Source: Squalus acanthias
Taxonomy: Eukaryota
Length of the DNA stretch: 64,000 bases
Reading direction: 5' to 3'
Assembly (NCBI GenBank): GCA_030390025.1
Contig: CM059432.1
Span: 68,946,001-69,010,000 of the forward strand
The notes under the pieces are model-generated. The model ran no database searches, had not been told where the DNA came from, and saw nothing but the letters and a program-made list of their open reading frames with translations. This document shows positions 1 through 60,249 of the stretch, piece after piece (within the stretch, counting starts at the first letter, position 1; every line of letters begins with the position of its first letter). A program made the position numbers and the translations under genes.

Positions 1-562
1 TTTTCACATCTATTGCAGCAAGCTGCCACTTCAATAAAATCAAAAAAAAACAGTCCAAAAGCTTAAATACAAACCTATCTGAACGATGTGTATGTCCCTT
101 TAAGAGGAGCTGACATCGCCACTATCAGCCTGCTTGCAGGACCCAGCGCTGAATTCAATGCTAGGGTTGAAGTTTGCGTTTGTGACATTAATTCGGCGTT
201 GCACGCTGATTGACGTCACAACACCACCATTTTGTTCGAGATGGCGCTGCCAGTTACCGGCAGTGCAAAGGTGGGGACGAAAATGGCGGCCACCGTGGGA
301 ACCGCCGGCAGCTATCATTTTAGCGCCATTAAATGGCGCTACAGAGTGGCACTAAGGCCACAAATTTCGCACCCTCACTGCTAAAACCACTGCTCATTGA
401 CTTACTGCTCAACAGGTGGGCCAATATCAGGTCCAGTCTAATTCCCAGTCATGTTTGGCACAGGCTTTATTCAGTACATAGAGGGGAGGTGCATTTATGC
501 TACAGCATCTCATAGTCAATCCAGTTCCAACTTCACCTGGAAGCAGACAGCAGTGAATGCAG

Positions 563-40390: not shown

Positions 40391-40539
40391 TTGAATCCCT
40401 CCAATCAGGTTTCCGCCCCTGCCACAGTACCGAAACGGCCCTTATCAAAGTCACAAATGACATCCTATGTGACTGTGACCATGGTTCAGAGCGCGGACCT
40501 GAGCAGGAGGCGGCAGCAGCAGAGGCGGCAGCATAAATA

Positions 40540-42768
40540 GAGCAGCGGAGAAGGCCCAGGATACAGCGCGGACCTGAGTGGAGAAGGCCCAGGATACAGC
40601 GCGGACCTGAGCGGAGGTGGCCCAGGATACAGTGCGGACCTGAGCGGAGAAGGCCCAGGATACAGCGCGGACCTGAGTGGAGAAGGCCCAGGATACAGCG
40701 CGGACCTGAGCGGAGGTGGCCCAGGATACAGTGCGGACCTGAGCGGAGAAGGCCCAGGATACAGCGCGGACCTGAGCGGAGAAGGCCCAGGATACAGCGT
40801 GAACCTGAGCGGAGGAGGCCCAGGATACAGCGCGGACCTGAGCGGAGAAGGCCCAGGATACAGCGCGGACCTGAGCGGAGGCGGCTTAGTATACAGCACG
40901 GACCTGAGCGGAGAAGGCCCAGGATACAGCGCGGACCTGAGCAGAGAAGGCCCAGGACAGAGCACGGACCTGAGCGGAGAAGGCCCAGGATACAGCGCGG
41001 ACCTGAGCGGAGAAGGCCCAGGATACAGCGCGGACCTGAGTGGGGGCGGCCCAGGATACAGCACGGACCTGAGCGGAGAAGGCCCAGGATACAGCGTGGA
41101 CCTGAGCGGAGAAAGCCCAGGATACAGCGCGGACCGGAGCAGAGAAGGCCCAGGATACAGCGTAGACCTGAGCGGAGGCGGCCCAGGATACAGTGTGGAC
41201 CTGAACGGAGAAAGCCCAGGATACAGCGTGGACCTGAGCGGAGAAGGCCCAGGATACAGCGCGGACCTGAGCGGAGAAGGCCCAGGACACAGCGCGGACC
41301 TGAGCAGAGAAGGCCCAGGATACAGCGCGGACCTGAGCGGAGAAGGCTCAGGATACAGTGCGGACCTGAGCGGAGAAGGCCCAGGACAGAGCACGGACCT
41401 GAGCGGAGATGGCCCAGGATACAGCGCGGACCTGAGCGGAGGCGGCCCAGGATACAGCACGGACCTGAGCGGAGGCGGCCCAGGATACAGCGCAGAGCTG
41501 AGCGGAGAAGGCCCAGAATACAGCGCGGACCTGAGCGGAGGCGGCCCAGGATACAGCACGGACCTGAGCGGAGAAGGCCCAGGATACAGCATAGACCTGA
41601 GCGGAGAAGGCCCAGGATACAGAGCGGACCTGAGTGGAGAAGGCCCAGGATACAGCGCGGACCTGAGCGGAGAAGGCCCAGGATACAGCGTGGACCTGAG
41701 CAGAGAAGGCCCAGGATACAGCGCGGACCTGAGCGGAGGCGGCCCAGGATACAGCGCGGACCTGAGCGGAGAAGGCCCAGGACACAGCGCGGACCTGAGC
41801 GGAGAAGGCCCAGGATACAGCGCGGACCTGAGTGGGGGCGGCCCAGGATACAGCACGGACCTGAGCGGAGAAGGCCCAGGATACAGCGCGGACCGGAGCA
41901 GAGAAGGCCCAGGATACAGCGTAGACCTGAGCGGAGGCGGCCCAGGATACAGCGTGGACCTGAACGGAGAAAGCCCAGGATACAGCGTGGACCTGAGCGG
42001 AGAAGGCCCAGGATACAGCGCGGACCTGAGCGGAGAAGGCCCAGGATACAGCGCGGACCTGAGCGGAGAAGGCCCAGAATACAGCGCGGACCTGAGCGCT
42101 GGCGGCCCAGGATACAGCACGGACCTGAGCGGAGAAGGCCCAGGATACAGCATAGACCTGAGCGGAGAAGGCCCAGGATACAGAGCGGACCTGAGCGGAG
42201 AAGGCCCAGGATACAGCGCGGACCTGAGCGGAGAAGGCCCAGGATACAGCGTGGACCTGAGCAGAGAAGGCCCAGGATACAGCGCGGACCTGAGCGGAGG
42301 CGGCCCAGGATACAGCGCGGACCTGAGCGGAGAAGGCCCAGGACACAGCGCGGACCTGAGCGGAGGCGGCCCAGGATACAGTGCGGACCTGAGCGGAGGC
42401 GGCCCAGGACAGAGCACGGACCTGAGCGGAGAAGGCCCAGGACAGAGCACGGACCTGAGAGGAGAAGGCCCAGGATACAGCGCGGACCTGAGCGGAGAAG
42501 GCCCAGGATACAGCGCGGACCTGAGCGGAGAAGGCCCAGGATACAGCGCGGACCTGAGCGGAGAAGGCCCAGGATACAGCACGGACCTGAGCGGAGAAGG
42601 CCCAGGATACAGCGTGGACCTGAGCGGAGAAGGCCCAGGATACAACGTGGACCTGAGCGCAGGCGGCCCAGGATACAGCGCGGACCCGAGCGGAGAAGGC
42701 CCAGGATACAGCGCGGACCTGAGCGGAGAAGGCCCAGGATACAGTGCGGACCTGAGCGGAGGCGGCGG
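40540..42768 (+). repeat. 33-bp CpG-rich minisatellite, ~67 units
   Basis: Consensus GGACCTGAGCGGAGAAGGCCCAGGATACAGCGC. 11-aa periodicity in the ORF track. Confidence 0.97.
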
Positions 42769-44056
42769 AGATATATTCGGTGAAACAAAAAAACAAACAA
42801 AAAAAAACAAGGAGTGAAATACAGGACAGCAGGTAGGTGATTGATTGGTGAGTATTACCTTTGTCTTTTTCTCTCTAAGTTAAGGCAGTTAAGAAGTTTA
42901 GTTAGCAGTCTAATAAATAGAGGCATAGCAGGGCACTTCAATCCCGTTGAATGCACATCCTGTGCCGTGTGGGAAGTTCAGGATGCTTCTTGTGTCATGG
43001 ACAACCACATGTGCAGGAACTGTTATCAGCTGGAGGAGCTCAAGCTCAAGGCTGAGAGCTACCATAGATCGCACGCTTCAGGAGGTGGTCACCCCGCAGC
43101 TTAAGAGTTTGCAGGCAGATAGGAAATGGGTGACCGCCAGACAGACAAGGAGGACCAGGCAGGTAGTGCAGGCGTCCCCTGAGTGCGTCTCACTCTCTAA
43201 CCAGTATTAATACTGGTGAGGGTGATGGTTCCTCCAGGGAGTGCAGCCAGAGCCAAGAACACGGCACCATGGGTGACTCTGCTGTACAGGGTGGGGGGAG
43301 GAGGAAGGTCAATAATGCAATAGTGAAAGGGGATTCAATAATTAGGGGAACAGACAGACGTTTCTGCGGCCATAGTCATGACTCCAGGATGGTATGTTGC
43401 CTCGCTGGTGCCAGGGTCAAGGATGTCACTGAGCGGCTGCAGGACATTCTGAGGGGAGAGGGTGAACAGCCAGAAGTTGTGGTCCATATCGGTACCAACA
43501 ACATAGGTAGAAAGAGGGATGCGGTCCTGCAGGCAGAATGTAGAGAGCTAGGAAAAAGATTAGTAAGCAGGACCTCAATGGTAGTAATCTCTGGATTATT
43601 CCAGGTACCACGCACAAGTGAGTAAAGAAATAGGAGGATCGAGCAGATGAATGCATGGCTGGAGAGATGGTGCAGGAGGGAGGGCTTTAGATTCCTGAGG
43701 CATTGGGACCTGTTCTGGGGGAGGTGGGACCTGTACAAACCAGACGGATTGCGCCTCAACAGGGCCAGGACCAATATCCTCGAGGGGGGGGGTTGTTGCT
43801 AGTGCTGTTGGGGAGGGTTTAAACTAGCTTGGCAAGGGGATGGGAATCTGAGCGAAGATTTAGTAGGGGGAGAAGCAAAGCTGGAAATGGAAGGCAGTAA
43901 ATTAGTAAATGAGTTTGGAAGGCAGAGGAAGCAAAGGCTAGAAAATAGACAACAAAGGAGTTTGGCAGTGCTTAATGATATAAACTTCAATGCAAGGAGT
44001 CTAGTGAATAAGGCAGATGAGCTGAAGGCACAGATAGACACGTGGAAGTATGACAT

Positions 44057-50346: not shown

Positions 50347-52696
50347 TTTGTATTTAAAGGCTCTGGCTTTTAGTGCCACCCTGTATGGCAAATAACTTCA
50401 ATATTATCAGACAGCGAATGGAGATTGAAATATGTACACCATGCAGTTGTAGCATTTTAGAATATATAAACTATTGTTTGCATATAAACTATAGAGAATA
50501 CATTACACATGGAGGTTGAAGCTCTAAAGATTAATTTTAGAGTACAGGTTCATGCATTTGTGCAAAATCATGCAACAAATTCACTAACTCATTTACTTGA
50601 AATGTTAACAAGTTTGTTAAAATAGTGCACTTCAGAATTTTACACAAGTACAATACATAGGATATACAGCACAGAAACAGGCCATTTGGCCCAACCAGTC
50701 CATACCGGTGTTTATGTTCCACTCGAGCCGCTAAAAATAGCACTTGATGAATGTGTCGAAGTTTGATTGTTGCATTTCCCCTTTAAAAATAAATTCATAT
50801 GAAGAATTATTGCTGGCATGCCTTAACAACTGATAAGGATGGCGAGAAAGTTTTCTTTTAATTTTATTGTTTGGTAGATTATATTTGAATCTTAACTTAA
50901 AAAGTATTTATGTTGTACTGTAAAGGTTTTGTGTCCGTTTGTGAGTTACCAGCAAACTGCCATTTACATTGTCTGTAATGGCCTTGATTTGTCTTTATTA
51001 CGGAATTTGTAGTCTTAGTCCCCTGGGAGTACTAACTCCATGTGATGCCTTTGTGTTTTGTAATTATAAAACCCCAATCTGGCATTTATGAGCATATAAA
51101 TAATACTGTGCTGAAAGGTGTGTAAAAACTCTGGACTCTGGAGACTTGACAATAGATGTAGAGTTTATTCAAACATGTTCTGTGAGTCTCCTTTTCAGGG
51201 AGTGTTCATGGCTGAAGATATTATTTGTCTCCACTCTCAGCCCATTTTGATTAACAAAAGGCAGTTTTGGAAGTAAATGTGGAAATTTCAGTGATTCTCA
51301 GTAGTTAGAGCTGCCAACTATTAGTGATCTCTGTCGTCTGCTATGTGAATGATACCAAATTATAAGGCAGTGTAAACAATGAAAAATGCAGTGCAACCAG
51401 ATTTGGGAAGATTTCAATCTTTTAGTTAACTGGGCCAGTAGATACAATTTATGTAGGGGAGCAAGGAACTAAAAGACGAGAGTATATGTTGAATGGAACA
51501 GTCATACCATGTGCTGATCAAAAATTTCTGGGGGTTGTAGTGGTTCAATCTATGAGACTGTTAGCGCAGTGCTTAGCTACAATTAAGCAGGCAAATCATG
51601 TACTGGTTGTATTAGCAGAGGCACAGATTACAAATGAAAATAAGTTATATTGTATCATGGGCCCACAGACCCTGATTGTCTATCCATCAGTGATGATCGA
51701 GGAGTGAGGGATGTGACAGGCCATGATCTTACAGATTGTGGTTGTATACAATTCTGCTGCTGCTGATGGCTACCATGCATGTTTGCAGCATGATTTTGTG
51801 GTGGTGAAGCCAGGGACAAGAAAAAGATAGAAAAAAATAGAAAATTGCAAGGCTGGTAAAGACCATTTACATTTAGCCCAGATTTTACGATCAGCGGCGA
51901 ACAAACGACCCAGCCATTCATTACACTTACAATTGTCCACAGACTTTCTATGAGCTTTTGCATTAGAGGTTGCGGTTATTAGAAATTGAAAACAGCGTGC
52001 CGTCCTCTACAGGGGATCTGGAACCTGTGTGAACAGGGCAAGGAACACTGCATCTCCTAACCAATCAGATTGAAGAGTCCTTACTGAGACACGCAGATTC
52101 TGAATCAGGAAGTATCAGTCAGAATATTTAATTCAATGCCAAATTATGTACAGAAAGTGAAATAAAGGCCGGAATTTTCCCATTGCCAAGCGTGCAGGTT
52201 TGGGGGCAGGTCGGCAGTTAAGAGCACGGACATTGACATTGCGTTGGGAACCCGCCGACTTCCGTATTTAACTCGGGCGCGTTTTGAGCTGCGCCACGGA
52301 CCCGCTCGGGAGATGCGGGTGACCTCATTGAGAAAGTTAACTGCTCGTTGTGAGACCCTTAATTGCCTTTTTAACTTCAGGTTTTGGATTTAACTTCTTG
52401 AGCACAGGATTCCCGCACCTCAGGAACCTCGCCTGTGAAGGGGAGGCGGAAGCTCAGTGGCCATTGTACGAGTCCATTAATTGACAGCTGGAAAAAACAC
52501 ATAAATACTCGCACATTACACCAGCTTCCTTCCCTAATGGAAGGCTCTTGCTGCTTCCATTTTGTGCAGAGATTTGGCTGTCAGGAGTTTGCAGGTCATT
52601 TCTGCAACCTCGGAAGCCACTCTCACTACACTGCTTGTCACTATGAGAACATTGGCCCTCTGATCTTCACTTTACCTGCCATCTATTACATCAGCA

Positions 52697-53858
52697 TGGG
52701 TGCTGCTTATGCTGTCTCTCCTTGGACCTCAGAATCGGACCAAGGTGAGCCCCAGCACCAACAACACCAGCCACACCAGCAGCAGCAGCAACCACAGCAG
52801 CAGCCTTCTCAACGACCACATAGAGAGGCGGTCAGCACAGGGCTGCACCACGCCAGAGGCGATACCCCCAAACACAGGGTATACAGGCAGAGGATGACCT
52901 TCCTGGACATGACTGAACACCAGTGCTACAGGAGGCTCAGGCTATCGCGCCAGGCTGTCACAGACATATGTAGCTTGCTGGAACAGAGGACCTGGTGGAG
53001 ACGCCTTACCAGTGGCTGTCAAAGTCACCACTGCCCTCAACTTCTTCACCTCAGGCTCCTTCCAGGGATCTGCAGCAGACATTTGCAGGATCTCGCAGTT
53101 GGCCGCCCACAGATGCATCACCCAGGTGACCGATGCCATGTTTCACAAGTCAGCCACTTATATAAACTTTGCCACTGATGAAGCCAATGTTACTGAACGG
53201 GCGCTCAGCTTCACGGCTCTGGCTGGCTTCCCACAGGTGCAGGGTGTCATCGACTGCACACATGTGGCCATCAAGGCACCCCCACATCACCCAGGAGTGT
53301 TTGTGAACTGTTAAGGCTTCCACTCCCTCAATGTGCAGCTCGTCTGCAACCATAAAAATATGATCATGCATGTGTGCGCCAGATTCCCTGGCAGCTGTCA
53401 TGACTCTTTCGTGCTGCGCCAGTCCACCCTCCCTCAGCTCTTCGAACCTCCAAACAGACTTAATGGCTGACTGCCTGGAGAAAAGGGCTATCCACTGAAG
53501 ACGTGGCTCCTGACACCCTTGAGGAGGCCAAGCAATGAGGCCGAGGAGCGTAATAATGACAGCCACATGTCCACCAGATGTGTCATAAAGCAAGCAATCG
53601 GCATGCTGAAGATGCACTTCACATGCCTTGACAGATCTGGAGGAGCCCTTCAGTACGCACCAGCCAGGGTCTCCAGAATTATTGTCGTGTGCTGCACATT
53701 GCACAACATAGTGCAGCAACGAGGATTGGAGCTGCTGGAGGAGCAAGGCGGAACACGAGGAGGAGGAGAAGGAACCTGAGGTGGAGATGGCAGCAGCAGT
53801 GGCGCACATTGCTACCCAGGAGGCCCGGGATGGCCTCATAATGGTCAGATTTACTTAA
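52697..53858 (+). pseudogene. Harbinger DDE transposase, decayed
   Basis: [70 protein letters not shown]. Contains stops and frameshifts. Confidence 0.9.
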
Positions 53859-54153
53859 TTTGCACCAGTGCACCCATATGGCTCCTAGATTCTGTACTAA
53901 CTATCCCCCACCCCAACAACACCACAACACAGTCCTTAATGGCCAAGCCATTCCTGTCACCTAAACCCCCATTGTTCGAGGTTAAATAATGTCTCACCAT
54001 TCACTCCAAGTGACAAGACCACTTCCCAGGTAGCAGGCAAACATGGACAAGGTGGGAAAGTTGTGCAAACAAGTTAATTTATGTGTGTCATAAATATAAC
54101 TGAAACTTAACATAAATATTTTTTCATACACCCATGTGCATACCCTTGTGCAG

Positions 54154-57100
54154 CTAGGGCAGATCCGTTTCTGAGCGTACGGTACAGGGTTGATCGTGGC
54201 TGCGCGTGCGAGCCCCGACGGGCTCATAGTCAGTCTGCCCCAGGTCGGCACGCTGGAGTGAGGTACCAGCCGGCGTCAGATCCCGATCATGATGAGAGGC
54301 ACCTGGCAAGCCCAGAGATGTGCCTGGTACAATATCATCCCCTGGTGTCCCTCTATGTTTCGGCGGGCAGGGAGCCAGATCCCGCAATGACACGGTAGAT
54401 TCCCGACCGTCAGGATACCGAATATAGGCGTAGGTAGGGTTGACGTCAGTGAGCTCAACCTCATCTACCAGGGGGTCATTCTTAGACGCCCGGACATATC
54501 TTCGGAGTAGCACTGGTCCCGGTGCAGTCAGCCACGACGGGAGAGATGTCCCATAGGATGAGCGACGCTGAAATCGGAAGAACCGTTCATGAGGCGTCGT
54601 ATTTGTGGCGGTCGAAAGGAGGGACCGTGTGGAGTGTAATGCGTCTGGAAGTACTGCTTCCCAATGCTGGTTGGGTAGGCCCCGAGATCTCAAAGCCAGA
54701 CGTACCGCATTCCAGATGATAGCGTTAAAACGCTCGACTTGCCCATTCCCAACCGGATGATAAGGCGTCGTTTTGCTGGCAGCAATACCCCGTTCCGAGA
54801 GATAGGCCTTGAGTTCTCCCGACATAAAAGAAGGGCCCCGATCTGAATGAACATAGGATGCCATGCCACAGAAAGCAAATACCTGTTCAAGGCAGCTGAT
54901 AACCGTGGTTGTCAGCATATTGGGGCAGGGAAAGGCAAACGGAAAACGAGAATACTCATCAACCATTGTTAATAGATAAGTGTTGCGAGTCGAAGAGGGC
55001 AACGGCCCCTTAAAATCGATGCTAAGCCTTTGCATTGGCTGGGTCGCATGTATGAGTATACCACCCGAGGGGCGGAAAAACCGAGGTTTCAATTCCGCAC
55101 AGACTCTGCAGTCCGAGCACATCTTCTTTACATCCCCGGTAGAGAATGGGAGATTTCGGGACCGCACGAAGTGCAGCATGCGAGTAACGCCTGGATGACA
55201 CAACCCATCATGGATGTCTACGAGCGTAGAGGGTGCCATGGCGGAGCAGAATGCTCGTGTGAGGGTATCCGGAGCCACATTCTCCTTGCCAGGTCGATAG
55301 TGGATGGTGTAACCAAAAGAGGCCAATTCCAGCCGCCAAAGCTGGATTTTATTATTTTTAATTTTGGTCCGTTTTCGATTATCGAGCATGAAGGCGACCG
55401 ATCGCTGGTCCGTGATTAAGGTAAAGTGCTGGCGAGCCAGGAGATGACTCCACTTCCGTACTGCCTCTATGATGGCTGTAGCTTCTTTCTCGACTGGAGG
55501 ATAATGTAGCTCAGCCCCTTGAAAAGTCCTGGACAAAAATGCCACCGGACGACCTTCCTGATTCAGAGTGGCTGAGATTGCCACCTCCGAGGCATCACAC
55601 TCAACCACGAAAGGAAGACTCTCATCGATGGAGTGAAGAGCCGCTTTCTCCAACTGCTTTTTCAGGAGGTTAAAGGCTGCAACAGCCGTTGTGTCTAGTG
55701 GGAATGTGCTGGCCTTCAGTAGAGGTTGGATTCGGTCCGAGAAGTTAGGAATCCATTTCGCATAGTATGCAAACAGGCCGAGGGCCCGGCGCAAGGAGGC
55801 CGGATTCTTAGGTGGCGGGAGTTCTTGGAGTGGGCGAAGCCTTTCAGGGTCAGGTTTAATGATGCCATTGCCCACACAATAGCCAAGGATGTTGATAGTT
55901 GGTTGTGACTCAATGGATTTAGCCGCATTCAATGTCAAATTACGGTGCTGGAGTGCATCCCAAAATCGTTGGAGATTGGCGTCATGTTCCTGCTGATTGC
56001 GACCTGCGACAGTAATATTGTCCAGATAAGGAAACGTATCCTTCAAGTCTTCCTGTTTGACCAGGTCATCCATTGCTCGCTGGAAGACAGCCACTCCATT
56101 AGTGACCCCAAAGGGGAGGCGACGAAATTGATACAGCCGCCCATTGGCTTCAAAGGCTGTATACTGCTTGTCTGAGACCTTCAAGGGTACCTGATGATAG
56201 GCGCTTTTCAGATCATAAGTCGAGAACACCGTGTACTCAGCCAATTTATTAACCATATCATCGATGCGCGGCAATGGGTATGCGTCCAAGTCCGTATACT
56301 GATTGATGGTCTGTGAATAGTCAATGCACAGCCGTTTCTTGTGAGGTTGTAGAGGGTTCTTAACAATAACGACCTGGGCGCGCCATGGCGACGAACAAGG
56401 CTCGATGATATCCTCTGCTAAAAGCCGAGAAATCTCAGCCGCAATAAAAGACTGGTCTTCCTGACTGAAACGGCGTGACTTTGTTATAATCGGTTTGCAT
56501 CGAGGAGGGATACTGGCAAACAGTGAGGGTTCATCCAGTGAAGCTGCTGACAAGGCACAGAACGGTAATCGAGGTCGTATATTAGAAATAGTGAGTTCAG
56601 GTTTGGATCCGCCGAACTCAATGGTAAGCTTCTTATGCTGCTTTTGAAAATCCAGCCCTAAGATAAGATCACTACATAAGTCCTTGAGCACCGAAAGCCG
56701 GGTGGAGGGATACCTGTGACCTTTAAGCATTATTTCAACTACACAGAAGCCAGAAATTCTGGTATTAAGTGATGACTGAGCCATCGCAACTGCCTGGTCC
56801 GATGGAAAAACATGTAGCTTTAACTGTGCAACAGTCTGTTCCCTAATGAAACTATCAGTGCTACCTGAGTCAATTAAGGCATCTAAAGTATGTCCATTAA
56901 TTGATGCTTTTGTAGCTGCATGGAATAGATTCTGAGGACAAGCAGCTGTAATTGGTGTCGTTGCACAAAGAGTGGCTGAAATTCTAGGTGTGTTTCTTCG
57001 AGAAAAAACCCGAGAGGAAGCACGATAGTTTTTAGTTGGAACATCCTGATAGGCCCTTACTGGGGCAGTTCGGTAGGACTTAGCTTGATAAGCCCTCGTA

Positions 57101-57906
57101 GAGGCTCTTGATAGGCAAACCTTTACAAAATGACCCTTTTTGTTGCAATGACTGCAAAACGCATTGCGAGCAGGGCAGAATCTCCGAGGGTGAAACTCAT
57201 CACCACAAAAAAAGCATTTCTTAGATTGCCAAGAGGCTGCCACAGTGGGGTCATCATCCTCTTCATCAGTGAAGTCATCAGATCGATCGTCAGGGATAAA
57301 GTCCTCCCTAATAGAGTTCACCTGTGGCCTCTTAAATTGCCTGACTGTAGTTAAGGCAGCAGACTGAGGTCTGGGCACTGTAAAAAGGTCTGCATTTCTT
57401 TTTGCCAGATCTAGAGAGCAAGCCAGGTCATAAGCTCTCTGCAGCTCAAGTGTCTTACTTTCCAGTAGACGCTGGCGTATAAATGGGGAGGCAAGCCCGC
57501 AGATGAACGCATCACGGATCATTTCTTCGCGGTATAGCTCAGCTGAGGCTGCCCGAAAGTTACAGTCCATACTAAGTCTGCGAAGCTCTTGGAGGAATTT
57601 ATCAATGGATTCATCCGGCCCTTGTTGGGCTGTAGCTAGTAGATGTCTAGCATAGACCTCATTCGGTGTCTTAGTATATAGTCTCTTAAGCGTCTGAATT
57701 GCCTCCTCATAACTGTCCCAGTCTTCCACATACTGAAATACATTCGGGGTGACACAGTTGATGAGTATCCGCAACTTTGAGTTATCATCAGCTTTGCAAT
57801 ACTCAAGAAAATTCTCAAACGTGCGATACCAGTGTTTCCACACCTTACCGGCTGCTGGGGTGTTTGGGTCCAAGTCAAGACGCGATGGTTTAAGGATGTT
57901 TTCCAT
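54154..57906 (-). CDS. Ty3/Gypsy gag-pol polyprotein, 1250 aa, uninterrupted (Gag, 2 CCHC, PR, RT, RNase H, IN)
   Basis: CFFCGDEFHPRRFC and CSHCNKKGHFVKVC; ALIDSGS; YDLKSAYHQ, LPFGV, YLDN; ECDAS, EKEA, TDQ; H..H..C..C, IDFKG, SDRG, GQVERFN. PR-RT-RH-IN order. Confidence 0.96.
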   Translation of the reverse strand: MENILKPSRLDLDPNTPAAGKVWKHWYRTFENFLEYCKADDNSKLRILINCVTPNVFQYVEDWDSYEEAIQTLKRLYTKTPNEVYARHLLATAQQGPDESIDKFLQELRRLSMDCNFRAASAELYREEMIRDAFICGLASPFIRQRLLESKTLELQRAYDLACSLDLAKRNADLFTVPRPQSAALTTVRQFKRPQVNSIREDFIPDDRSDDFTDEEDDDPTVAASWQSKKCFFCGDEFHPRRFCPARNAFCSHCNKKGHFVKVCLSRASTRAYQAKSYRTAPVRAYQDVPTKNYRASSRVFSRRNTPRISATLCATTPITAACPQNLFHAATKASINGHTLDALIDSGSTDSFIREQTVAQLKLHVFPSDQAVAMAQSSLNTRISGFCVVEIMLKGHRYPSTRLSVLKDLCSDLILGLDFQKQHKKLTIEFGGSKPELTISNIRPRLPFCALSAASLDEPSLFASIPPRCKPIITKSRRFSQEDQSFIAAEISRLLAEDIIEPCSSPWRAQVVIVKNPLQPHKKRLCIDYSQTINQYTDLDAYPLPRIDDMVNKLAEYTVFSTYDLKSAYHQVPLKVSDKQYTAFEANGRLYQFRRLPFGVTNGVAVFQRAMDDLVKQEDLKDTFPYLDNITVAGRNQQEHDANLQRFWDALQHRNLTLNAAKSIESQPTINILGYCVGNGIIKPDPERLRPLQELPPPKNPASLRRALGLFAYYAKWIPNFSDRIQPLLKASTFPLDTTAVAAFNLLKKQLEKAALHSIDESLPFVVECDASEVAISATLNQEGRPVAFLSRTFQGAELHYPPVEKEATAIIEAVRKWSHLLARQHFTLITDQRSVAFMLDNRKRTKIKNNKIQLWRLELASFGYTIHYRPGKENVAPDTLTRAFCSAMAPSTLVDIHDGLCHPGVTRMLHFVRSRNLPFSTGDVKKMCSDCRVCAELKPRFFRPSGGILIHATQPMQRLSIDFKGPLPSSTRNTYLLTMVDEYSRFPFAFPCPNMLTTTVISCLEQVFAFCGMASYVHSDRGPSFMSGELKAYLSERGIAASKTTPYHPVGNGQVERFNAIIWNAVRLALRSRGLPNQHWEAVLPDALHSTRSLLSTATNTTPHERFFRFQRRSSYGTSLPSWLTAPGPVLLRRYVRASKNDPLVDEVELTDVNPTYAYIRYPDGRESTVSLRDLAPCPPKHRGTPGDDIVPGTSLGLPGASHHDRDLTPAGTSLQRADLGQTDYEPVGARTRSHDQPCTVRSETDLP

Positions 57907-58168
57907 GATGGGTGATTCCCTGGATCCTTAGCTCCGAGTTCGTCCAAAAAGTTTGAGTGCGAAGTTTTTCAAAAGTTGATTAAATTGTCGTAAGAATGAG
58001 CCTTACGCGTGGTAAACTTAATGTAAGCTTTAATCAACTTAAAACGGTGCTGCATACAAAAGAGGTCTTACCCTATGCCTCTTCCAGAGCTAACTGATCA
58101 GTCCAGTATTTATCCTGGACTGATTACAGGAAGTGATGTCATACAGGAAGCTGAAAAGTGTTACCACA
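54159..58168 (-). mobile_element. Gypsy LTR retrotransposon with 5' LTR only
   Basis: Flanked by GCTAGG (54153-58, 58169-74). No second LTR or polypurine tract at the 3' end. Confidence 0.88.
57986..58168 (-). repeat. 183-bp 5' LTR
   Basis: Minus strand TGTGGTAA...TTACGACA (7/8 inverted termini). TATA-like GATAAATA and poly(A)-signal-like ATTAAA. Confidence 0.8.
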
Positions 58169-58727
58169 GCTAGGATTGTGTCTTTTTTCATTTACGCGTG
58201 CTTCTACGTGATGCAACCCCTGTGGCTTCAGCAGAGGTAGTTGCAGGCTGCTCACTTCCCTGCTGCGACTGCTTAGACGCTTTTGGCAGACGTCCTCTGG
58301 GATTTGGCGCATGTGAGGGCGCCGCCAAAGACTGCTCCTCCTGCAACTGTGCAGGGGCAGACTTGGCCATCAGGATCCGAGGCAGCATGAGGGGCTCTGA
58401 CTGAGGGGGAAGCAACGGGGGAGAAGTGGGAATGCTTTGAGAAAAGCCCCCACTTCTATGTCCCCTCTCACCATCATCCCTCTCATGGGCCACCCACACT
58501 TCCCTGCTAGCAAGGAGCTGGAGAGCACCCTGCTGCACATCAGTGGGGCGATGAAGGCCCAAGTCTATGTTTCTACCCCTCCTTGAGATGAGATCAATGA
58601 GAGTCTGCAATCTGTTGTCCACAGCAAGCATGTTCTTGTTGGACTGGCGCATTTGCTGCTCCATGCAGGTGGCCATCCTTTCCATGGAACAGCACATCGT
58701 CGCCGTCGCCTGCGAGATGGTGGTGCT

Positions 58728-60249
58728 CATAAAATCATAGAATCATAGAATGGTTACAGCACAGAAGAAGGCCATCCAGCCCGTCGAGCCCGTGCCAGAT
58801 CTCTGCAAGAGCACTTCAGCTAGTCCCACTCCCCCACCCTTTCCCTGTAGCCCTGCAAATTTCTTTCCTTCAGATACTTATCCAACTCCCTTTTGAAAGC
58901 CGTGATTGAATCTGCCTCCACCACCTTTTCAGGCAGTGTATTCCAGATCCTAACCACTCGCTGCGTAAAAAAGTTTTTTCTTACGTCGCCTTTGGTTCTT
59001 TTGCTAATCTTAAATCTGTGTCCTCTGGTTCTTGACCCTTCTGCCAATGGGAACAGTTTCCTTCTATCTACTCTGTCCAGACCCCTCATGATTTTGAACA
59101 CCTCTATCAAATCTCCTCTCAATCTTCTCTGCTCAAGGAGAACAACCCCAGCTTCTCCAGTCTATCAACGTAACTGAAGTCCCTCATTCCTGGAATCATT
59201 CTCGTAAATCGTTTCTCTCTCTAAGGCTTTCATATCCTTCCTAAGGTGTGGTACCCAGAATTGGACACAATACCCCAGTTGGGGCCGAACCAGTGTTTTA
59301 TACAGGTTCATCATAATTTCCACACTTTTGTACTCTATACCTCTATTTATGAAACCCAGGAGCCCGTAAGCCTTTTTAACTGTTTTCTCAACCTGTCCTG
59401 CCACCTTTAACGATTTGTACACACATATCCCAGGTCTCTCTGTTCCTGCACCCCCTTCAGGATTGTACCCTTTAGTTTATATGTCCTCTCCTCATTCTTT
59501 CTACCAAAATGTATCACTTCACACTTTTCTGCGTTAATTTTCATCTGCCACATGTCCGCCCATTTCACCAGCCTGTCTCTGTCTTCCTGAAGTCTATCAC
59601 TCTCCTCTTCACTGTTCACTATACTTCCAAGTTTTGTGTCATCTGCAAATTTTGAAATTGTGTCCTGTACACCCACGTCGAAGTCATTAATATATATCAA
59701 GAAAAGCAGTGGTCCTAGAACTGACTCCTGGGGAACACCACTGTATACCTTGCTCCATTCTGAAAAACAGTCGTTTACCACTACTCACTGTTTCCTATCA
59801 CTTAGCCAATTCCGTATCCATGCTGTCACTGTCCCTTTTACTCCATGGGCTTCAACTTTCCTGGCAAGCCTATTATGTGGCACTTTGTCGAATGCCTTTT
59901 GGAAATCCATATACACTTCGTCAACTACATTACCCTCATTAACCCTCTCTGTTACCTCATCAAATAACTCAATCAAGTTAGTTAAACACAATTTGCCTTT
60001 AACAAATTCGTGCTGGCTTTCCTTAATTAATCCACACTTGTCCAAGTGACTGTTAATTTTGTCCCTGATTACTGTTTCTAAAAGCTTCCCCAGTACCGAT
60101 GTTAAACTGACTGGCCTGTAGTTGCTGGGTTTATCTTTACACCCTTTTTTGAACAATGGTGTAACATTTGCAATTCTCCAGTCCTCTGGCACCACCCCCA
60201 TATCTAAGGAGGATTGGAATATTATGGCTAGTACCTCCGCGATTTCCTC
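58728..60249 (-). mobile_element. 5'-truncated CR1 LINE in the Harbinger Myb gene
   Basis: NYRPVSLTS, YMDFQKAFDKVPH, FADDTK. (CATAGAAT)n tail at ~58735. Confidence 0.92.

Follow-up and report, generated by a model that had tools for sequence, protein, structure and literature searches.

A Ty3/Gypsy element on contig CM059432.1 of Squalus acanthias raises the question of how reverse transcription can begin when no tRNA primer-binding site (PBS) follows the LTR. An earlier note on the 64,000-nucleotide stretch analyzed here (the window) had reported that the PBS position of this element is a perfect 12-nt complement of its own LTR, and had suggested that the element may belong to a separate self-priming lineage. 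To our knowledge, self-priming has been proven only for fission-yeast Tf1 and is predicted for its chromovirus kin and for one plant Copia lineage. Some Repbase entries are said to speak of self-primed Gypsy elements, and a prior mention is possible. The open literature consulted, mostly at the level of abstracts, gave no account of self-priming in a non-chromovirus animal Gypsy element; PMC5341516, PMC6934838, PMC6238403 and PMC3601003 were among the papers covered.

The element is assigned to Ty3/Gypsy by its TG..CA LTRs, target-site duplication (TSD), PPT and a gag followed by PR-RT-RH-IN without env, all of which are found across its family. Fifteen of 16 other whole copies carry two identical 183-bp LTRs, a 5-bp TSD and the PPT GGGGGGGAGAA, with a total length of 4418–4421 bp; the sixteenth has no exact match to the 3' LTR head. 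An intact copy encodes a product of 1318 aa. A search of the shark's own genome gave 1073 candidates, of which the 40 that were scored were 98–100% identical, and the 150 Gag matches scored were 99–100% identical, many of them inside an open frame of 1325 codons. The window copy represents a young Ty3/Gypsy family of high copy number. Contigs of four sequencing runs, which we guess to be RNA, also cover the element. The features of the window copy used below are as follows, in the order of the element.

58169 to 58173, minus strand: 5' target-site duplication CTAGC, observed.
57986 to 58168, minus strand: 5' LTR, 183 bp, TG..CA, defined by identical LTR pairs in other copies.
58107 to 58114, minus strand: TATA-like box GATAAATA (LTR 55–62), of putative function.
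58029 to 58040, minus strand: LTR segment that pairs with the PBS, with the last 11 nt as its core and ATTAAA at 58034–58029, from pairing and conservation.
58029 to 58030, minus strand: candidate position of an RNA cut (or of an RNA 5' end), between LTR A139 and A140, A140 being the last base in the putative minus strong-stop DNA, from fold-back and end-joined LTR units.
58016 to 58028, minus strand: predicted short hairpin beginning directly after the hexamer, from the fold and a family-wide stem count.
57989 to 58007, minus strand: predicted second U5 hairpin, CGTAAG/CTTACG.
57984 to 57985, minus strand: 2-nt spacer AT after the CA of the LTR, with AA as its counterpart ahead of the 3' LTR in full-length copies, observed.
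57973 to 57983, minus strand: primer-binding site TTAATCAACTT, without TGG, from observation and covariation.
54158 to 57906, minus strand: single gag-PR-RT-RH-IN ORF with two CCHC knuckles and YLDN at the RT active site, its 3' end missing, from translation and domain search.
54153 to 54157, minus strand: 3' target-site duplication CTAGC, directly after the truncated ORF, observed.

As can be seen from these coordinates, the window copy is truncated at its 3' side, with the ORF cut and both the PPT and the 3' LTR gone, and a perfect 5-bp TSD is nevertheless present on both sides. Since the TSD flanks a copy that has no PPT or 3' LTR, this suggests a one-ended or otherwise aberrant integration and not a later deletion. 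The LTR contains several other sequences of note. The TATA-like box forms the loop of a 7-bp inverted repeat, AGTCCAG/CTGGACT (window 58121–58100); in shark families B and C the equivalent place is occupied by TATAAATA, and there the box itself forms part of an inverted repeat. A splice-donor-like AGGGTAAGA lies within the LTR (window 58073–58038), and in most families a pyrimidine run and AG, resembling a splice acceptor or an initiator, are found at the 5' side of the paired segment.

On the minus strand the LTR ends in ..TTACGACA, followed by A and then by TTTAATCAACTT (57984–57973), the exact complement of the LTR segment AAGTTGATTAAA (58040–58029, LTR 129–140), with 44 nt between the two. 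The window contains this motif at one place only, and none of 100 shuffled versions of the window contains it, which confirms the complementarity first reported. The identical 12-mer is present at 76 of 76 5' junctions in the fetched loci, some of which overlap. The conserved core is 11 nt, because subfamily A2 leaves the 12th position unpaired. The two small hairpins that had been proposed for the enclosed 44 nt both appear in the predicted fold of the LTR-leader (z −2.15; 6 of 200 shuffles equally stable), which had no match in Rfam.

If the duplex matters to the element, its two strands should be found to change together in relatives. Families A, B and C and subfamily A2 of the shark genome supplied five references, and metagenome and MAG contigs supplied 87 loci (80 of 552, plus 7), 34 of them with a Gag start and at least 120 nt upstream. 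The resulting 39 junctions fall into 28 families, or 23 clusters if merged at 80% Gag identity. At 19 loci an LTR pair gives independent proof of where the LTR ends, and the reading there is CA followed by AT in every case; the T at +2 in all 39 junctions is a product of the rule used to place the LTR end and was excluded as evidence. Twenty-four of the 28 families pair with their own LTR at 11–12 of the first 12 positions (mean 11.4), compared with 7–8.6 for shuffled LTRs and 8.8 for the LTRs of other families, where 11 is reached by 93 of 756 cross pairs. For 26 of 28 families, no more than 2 of 200 LTR shuffles match the real score, the real LTR end having been picked by best score from one to three candidate CA sites, a choice that the shuffle control does not include; the remaining two (L161 and L212) fail the test.

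Among 27 families there are 18 distinct 11-mers, related families being non-independent draws. Positions 5–9 and 11–13 vary on both strands of the duplex. Almost no change is seen in three A-T pairs located at the 3' end or at position 10, which is a G-C pair in 27 of 27. Pairing is found in 25 of 27 families at position 12, in 22 at position 13, in 14–16 at positions 14–16 and in 5–6 at positions 17–20. Coupled changes are also seen at close range: one pair in shark family B reads T/A in 21 copies and C/G in 3, with three further copies that look like decayed C/G copies, and a second case separates L140 from L147 within one invertebrate family. We conclude that the PBS-LTR complementarity is a real, conserved feature that has been maintained through changes on both sides, the outcome of the covariation check that the earlier note had proposed.

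None of the 39 lineage junctions examined has a TGG PBS, so that its reported absence from the window copy extends to the relatives, whereas Mag-type elements of the same shark genome have an ordinary TGG PBS in 4 of 4 copies. A comparison of the 12-mer with host tRNAs had also been proposed. The best match to the PBS was 5 nt among 53 tRNA genes of about six types, a small sample and a weak test (20 stretches from 63 places in the genome, with 46 of the 53 genes being Lys or Cys).

The paired segment coincides with the position of the poly(A) signal. Read from the PBS, the hexamer takes the form AATAAA or ATTAAA in 19 of 27 families; five have GTTAAA and three another form, and four families have an additional canonical signal within the loop. 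For family A, the predicted unpaired probability of ATTAAA is 0.00–0.11 in the 5' context, whereas in the 3' context five of the six bases have values of 0.41–0.96. The idea that the duplex hides the poly(A) signal only at the 5' LTR thus fits the 19 families with a canonical hexamer but not the other eight; by this modeling, masking is possible and plausible, though not general.

These data bear on an explanation in which a host RNA, either a tRNA half or another small RNA, is the primer and the LTR-PBS duplex only hides the poly(A) signal. The canonical hexamers and the difference in predicted pairing between the two LTR contexts would fit such a role, the tRNA sample was small, and priming by tRNA halves is known for Copia elements, according to the part of PMC10886601 available to us. 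However, the letters of the PBS change among families in step with the LTR, eight families have no canonical signal to hide, the tRNA genes compared yielded nothing beyond 5 nt, and an RT primed in this way would read through the segment, not stop at its last base as described below. We consider a host primer very improbable. Self-priming in some form, by comparison, is strongly favored by the sequence comparisons.

Relatives of the window element were found by RT-RH similarity (about 56–89% identity, best 120 of 1527 matches) in shrimps, cnidarians, a nematode, a copepod, a tunicate, rays and many contigs, with a catshark relative also among the matches listed; none was found in viral contigs. 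Seven bacterial MAG contigs (L217–L223) carry the lineage, most simply as host DNA binned into MAGs. Copies near-identical to A1 and A2 (L031:352-760) occur in contigs of four other organisms (X9, X11, X12 and X14), which may be close relatives or may reflect recent transfer. In most of the lineage YLDN replaces the usual YxDD at the RT active site. A literature search for YLDN returned one unrelated paper only, and the lineage motif was not found in the portions of literature supplements searched (including PMC8556966); the lineage may be a clade already named in molluscs or annelids.

The absence of a chromodomain and the presence of two CCHC knuckles, both claimed from the window alone, hold up. 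No chromodomain was detected in the window ORF at E ≤ 0.1, nor at E ≤ 0.05 in a copy with a full C-terminus and nine relatives; Pfam Chromo and SH3_Tf2-1 were absent from 11 lineage proteins, Chromo being found in three comparison rows, and the knuckles are visible in the translation. No chromovirus family is evident in the shark genome among 16 Chromo matches. A double CCHC knuckle is a Mag trait, and Mag elements (A, B and C clades) also resemble the window family in having short LTRs, a single ORF and a length of about 4.4 kb, as far as described in the part of PMC11117352 available. Mag-type elements of the shark genome, however, share only 26–31% RT-RH identity with the lineage, and differ from it in their PBS and in their branch of the RT tree.

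That tree was a quick one of 77 rows and 208 columns (58 library rows picked by hand so as to span the clades of the library, 14 relatives, the window and four locus RTs), without named Tf1, sushi, Mag or CsRn1 references; the Mag, CsRn1-like and chromovirus labels of its rows are those we take to apply from their motifs, together with the three Pfam Chromo rows. On an open backbone, the lineage was recovered as one group (SH-aLRT 100, stem 1.12), apart from a group of chromovirus rows (99) and another of Mag rows (98), and it did not group with the presumed CsRn1-like rows. In a topology test with 38 rows, grouping with four chromovirus rows of fungal/vertebrate type was rejected (p-AU 0.013), while a position as sister to all chromovirus rows (p-AU 0.26) or with one Mag subclade (p-AU 0.23) was not. 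The phylogenetic check, in the unconstrained tree, thus places the lineage apart from chromovirus and Mag rows, which fits a separate self-priming lineage. Unlike Tf1/sushi elements, which are chromoviruses, the lineage sits on a long RT branch of its own outside the chromovirus rows. It appears to be Tf1-like in its working without being a member of the Tf1/sushi group, and its self-priming likely had an independent origin.

Genomic copies in which reverse transcription went astray provide a second line of evidence. Copies whose PBS continues as the reverse complement of the LTR were collected without selection on the position of the junction. A first search gave 6 matches, 3 of them extended, and a second gave 22, comprising 15 extended units and 7 point variants. 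Six of these 15 have the size of an LTR, two normal ends and a 5-bp TSD (five exact, one with one mismatch); in them an antisense U5 arm comes first and is followed by a fold-back that copies U5, AT, the PBS sequence and U3. The arm stops opposite the last A of the WTAAA hexamer in five of the six (four from family C, one from family B) and 2 nt further in the sixth; the re-entry points and TSDs are all different. By analogy with the established steps of retroviral replication, we infer that these structures derive from reverse-transcription intermediates and that the antisense U5 arm is minus strong-stop DNA.

Since five of the six units stop opposite the last A, the RNA was probably cut at ATTAA^A (window 58030/58029), and the true PBS would be TTAATCAACT(T), located behind the 2-nt spacer, with a primer ending in ...GAUUAA. 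The RNA template would then have ended at the last A and the DNA would begin with the 2-nt spacer. What appears to be new here is that mis-copied LTRs record the end of minus strong-stop DNA, giving a prediction of the cut to the base.

Junctions of another kind were sought in family A across LTR 134–151 (18 nt). The 14 matches, at 11 places, comprise four small slippage deletions and seven larger junctions, five of which lie at 140/141. Three of these five use one microhomology, AGCT; the other two have none and are joined to AATGTGG, the PPT-side (left) cDNA end with a 2-nt extension. Three more elements, from a search that selected on position, have 119–140 deleted through AGC in both LTRs. 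The equivalent scan of family C was not clearly clustered, since a single small slippage deletion accounts for about 39 of 60 matches and, among the 14 larger junctions, 6 lie at 160–164 (both counted by eye). In one deleted copy (L269), the plus strand ends at CA-AT before the jump. A fold-back LTR of family B (L256:1400-1500, G000:C25:14935029 region) has about 100 nt of foreign sequence, probably captured cellular RNA, at its strong-stop end; this insert had no match in Rfam.

Extended-PBS copies were also considered as a marker of the transcription start and rejected in this role: 17 of 18 units run into U3, past any plausible start site, and four of these reach the PPT (two of the four being a tandem duplicate). 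Hints of a start site conflict, with the unit in L224 stopping at TATA+30, whereas four family C units (L251, L254, L257 and L262) start at a cryptic TG (LTR 141) that precedes the cut by about 21 nt. At their other side these four units finish in an inverted U3 end, and three of them have an exact TSD. The cryptic-TG starts possibly mark an RNA 5' end.

Taken with the covariation, the fossils favor priming in cis, in which the 5' LTR copy of the segment folds onto the PBS and a cut before the last A frees the primer, a reading to which we assign a probability of roughly 0.6. Transcription would start upstream of the segment (in the shark families, some 30 nt past the TATA-like box), and the segment would fold onto the PBS over a loop of 20–67 nt. 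By analogy with Tf1, the element's RNase H would cut before the last A of ATTAAA, beside the small hairpin; a stem beginning at the first base past the hexamer is found in 18 of 27 families, compared with 5.5 expected. The freed ...GAUUAA end would prime minus-strand DNA, which would begin with the 2-nt spacer AT, run about 45 nt to the cut and then jump to the 3' LTR, into the short sequence that follows its poly(A) signal. As primer, a 5' fragment exceeding the 11 nt of Tf1 would be used, and families with a canonical hexamer would gain masking of their 5' poly(A) signal as a by-product.

The stop at the last A could instead mark a transcription start. A conserved TATA-like box lies 84–102 nt upstream of the stop base in families A, B and C (by eye, invertebrate relatives have no evident TATA box at a fixed distance), the stop base follows another A, and Pol II starts poorly at an A after A. 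The fossil junctions show no evident added C. Because of these three points, we favor a cut in the 5' copy over a start site. They weigh likewise on a scheme in which the 3' LTR copy of the segment, on the same or a co-packaged RNA, is cut and primes on the PBS, the fossil stop then being a transcription start or a second cut. Retroviruses with the poly(A) signal in U3 give a precedent for transcription starting at such a position. In this scheme it would be natural that nearly all extended-PBS units enter U3 and four enter the PPT and internal region, that four family C units copy through the uncut segment, and that mis-jumps land at nearby microhomologies, as expected if the acceptor end is missing. 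However, it is at the 5' copy that the strong-stop fossils end, which this scheme does not need unless transcription starts there, and this copy, separated from the PBS by only about 44 nt, should by prediction be the first to pair. Units reaching U3 would also follow if plus strong-stop DNA, ended at the PBS, annealed to the 3' LTR segment, survivors needing two integrase ends. Priming from the 3' copy therefore strikes us as unlikely.

A plain Tf1-type arrangement would have an initiator (YYAGT-like) at or just before the AG of the 11-mer, the first 10–15 nt of the transcript serving as primer. In the available part of PMC7175516, the Tf1 primer is the transcript's initial 11 bases, freed by an RNase H cut between bases 11 and 12. 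The 11-nt core of the shark lineage, its AG start after a pyrimidine-rich run in most families, the invariant G at position 10 and the fall of pairing to background past position 16 would all agree with this arrangement. Nevertheless, most families keep pairing on the 5' side of the AG, in many cases up to a pyrimidine, and the conserved TATA-like box of the shark families lies far upstream. In the window copy, 66 nt separate the end of the box (which starts at LTR 55, 58114) from the 12-mer, and the earlier remark that the segment lies too far past the box for a Tf1-style 5' end is supported indirectly by the conserved upstream position of the box in the shark families and by pairing length. 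As pairing is often 13–16 nt long and the box lies so far upstream of the stop base, the primer is probably not a Tf1-type 11-nt transcript start, and we hold the plain arrangement to be improbable. A primer made by splicing was considered as well and is unlikely, because the PBS pairs with unspliced sequence across the conserved AG.

Priming in cis after an internal cut shares much with Tf1/sushi elements. Like Tf1/Tf2 (Schizosaccharomyces pombe), Tj1 and Tosmo, the lineage has no tRNA PBS and about 11 nt of complement to its own LTR, with extra stems beside the duplex and a probable cut at the primer 3' end. It differs from them in that its paired segment, 20–67 nt from the LTR end, overlaps the poly(A)-signal position and probably does not correspond to the transcript's first 11 nt. 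The three-duplex 'pretzel' of Tf1, in the portion of PMC10085805 available, has two duplexes adjacent to the PBS, whereas the conserved flanking stem of the lineage is a local hairpin at the putative cut. Outside Tf1/sushi, PMC6317226, as partly available, predicts self-priming from PBS-LTR complementarity for TAR (Houba, Osr-1; plant Ty1/Copia) and for Tcn1 chromoviruses. TAR is Copia and Tcn1 a plant/fungal chromovirus clade, whereas the lineage described here is an animal Gypsy with PR-RT-RH-IN order. Fungal GalEa Copia elements likewise have no tRNA PBS and carry a pairing element, the Conserved Hairpin Site, directly after the 5' LTR; its partner is downstream in the internal region, not upstream inside the LTR as here (PMC5445492, seen in part). 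Saci2-like tapeworm elements have 4-bp TSDs, compared with 5 bp in the window family, according to the accessible part of PMC12471100.

More tentatively, in what would be a large and widespread animal Gypsy lineage, an internal poly(A)-signal segment, instead of the initial bases of the transcript, may be cut within an RNA duplex (ATTAA^A) to serve as primer, possibly at the 3' end of a second genome; this use would have arisen independently of Tf1, and one helix would both prime and distinguish the two LTRs for polyadenylation.

Self-priming in a vertebrate family that is young and high in copy number, and whose relatives occur in crustaceans, cnidarians, a nematode, a tunicate and rays, would mean that the mechanism reaches a major animal branch, and would bear on whether tRNA priming is ancestral or replaceable. 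Self-priming elements would escape control by tRNA fragments, and elements without a tRNA PBS are missed by LTR finders that require one. Since the fossils in the genome predict both the cut and the end of the primer to a single base, the mechanism is directly testable with short RNAs, and the same approach could map primers in other unstudied lineages.

Two further observations concern the surroundings of the element. It sits inside an apparent transposon remnant (window 52400–54150 and 58170–58740) that, from its translations, we take to be of Harbinger type, and a long tandem repeat with a 27-bp unit, open in several frames, occupies window positions 40400–42880.
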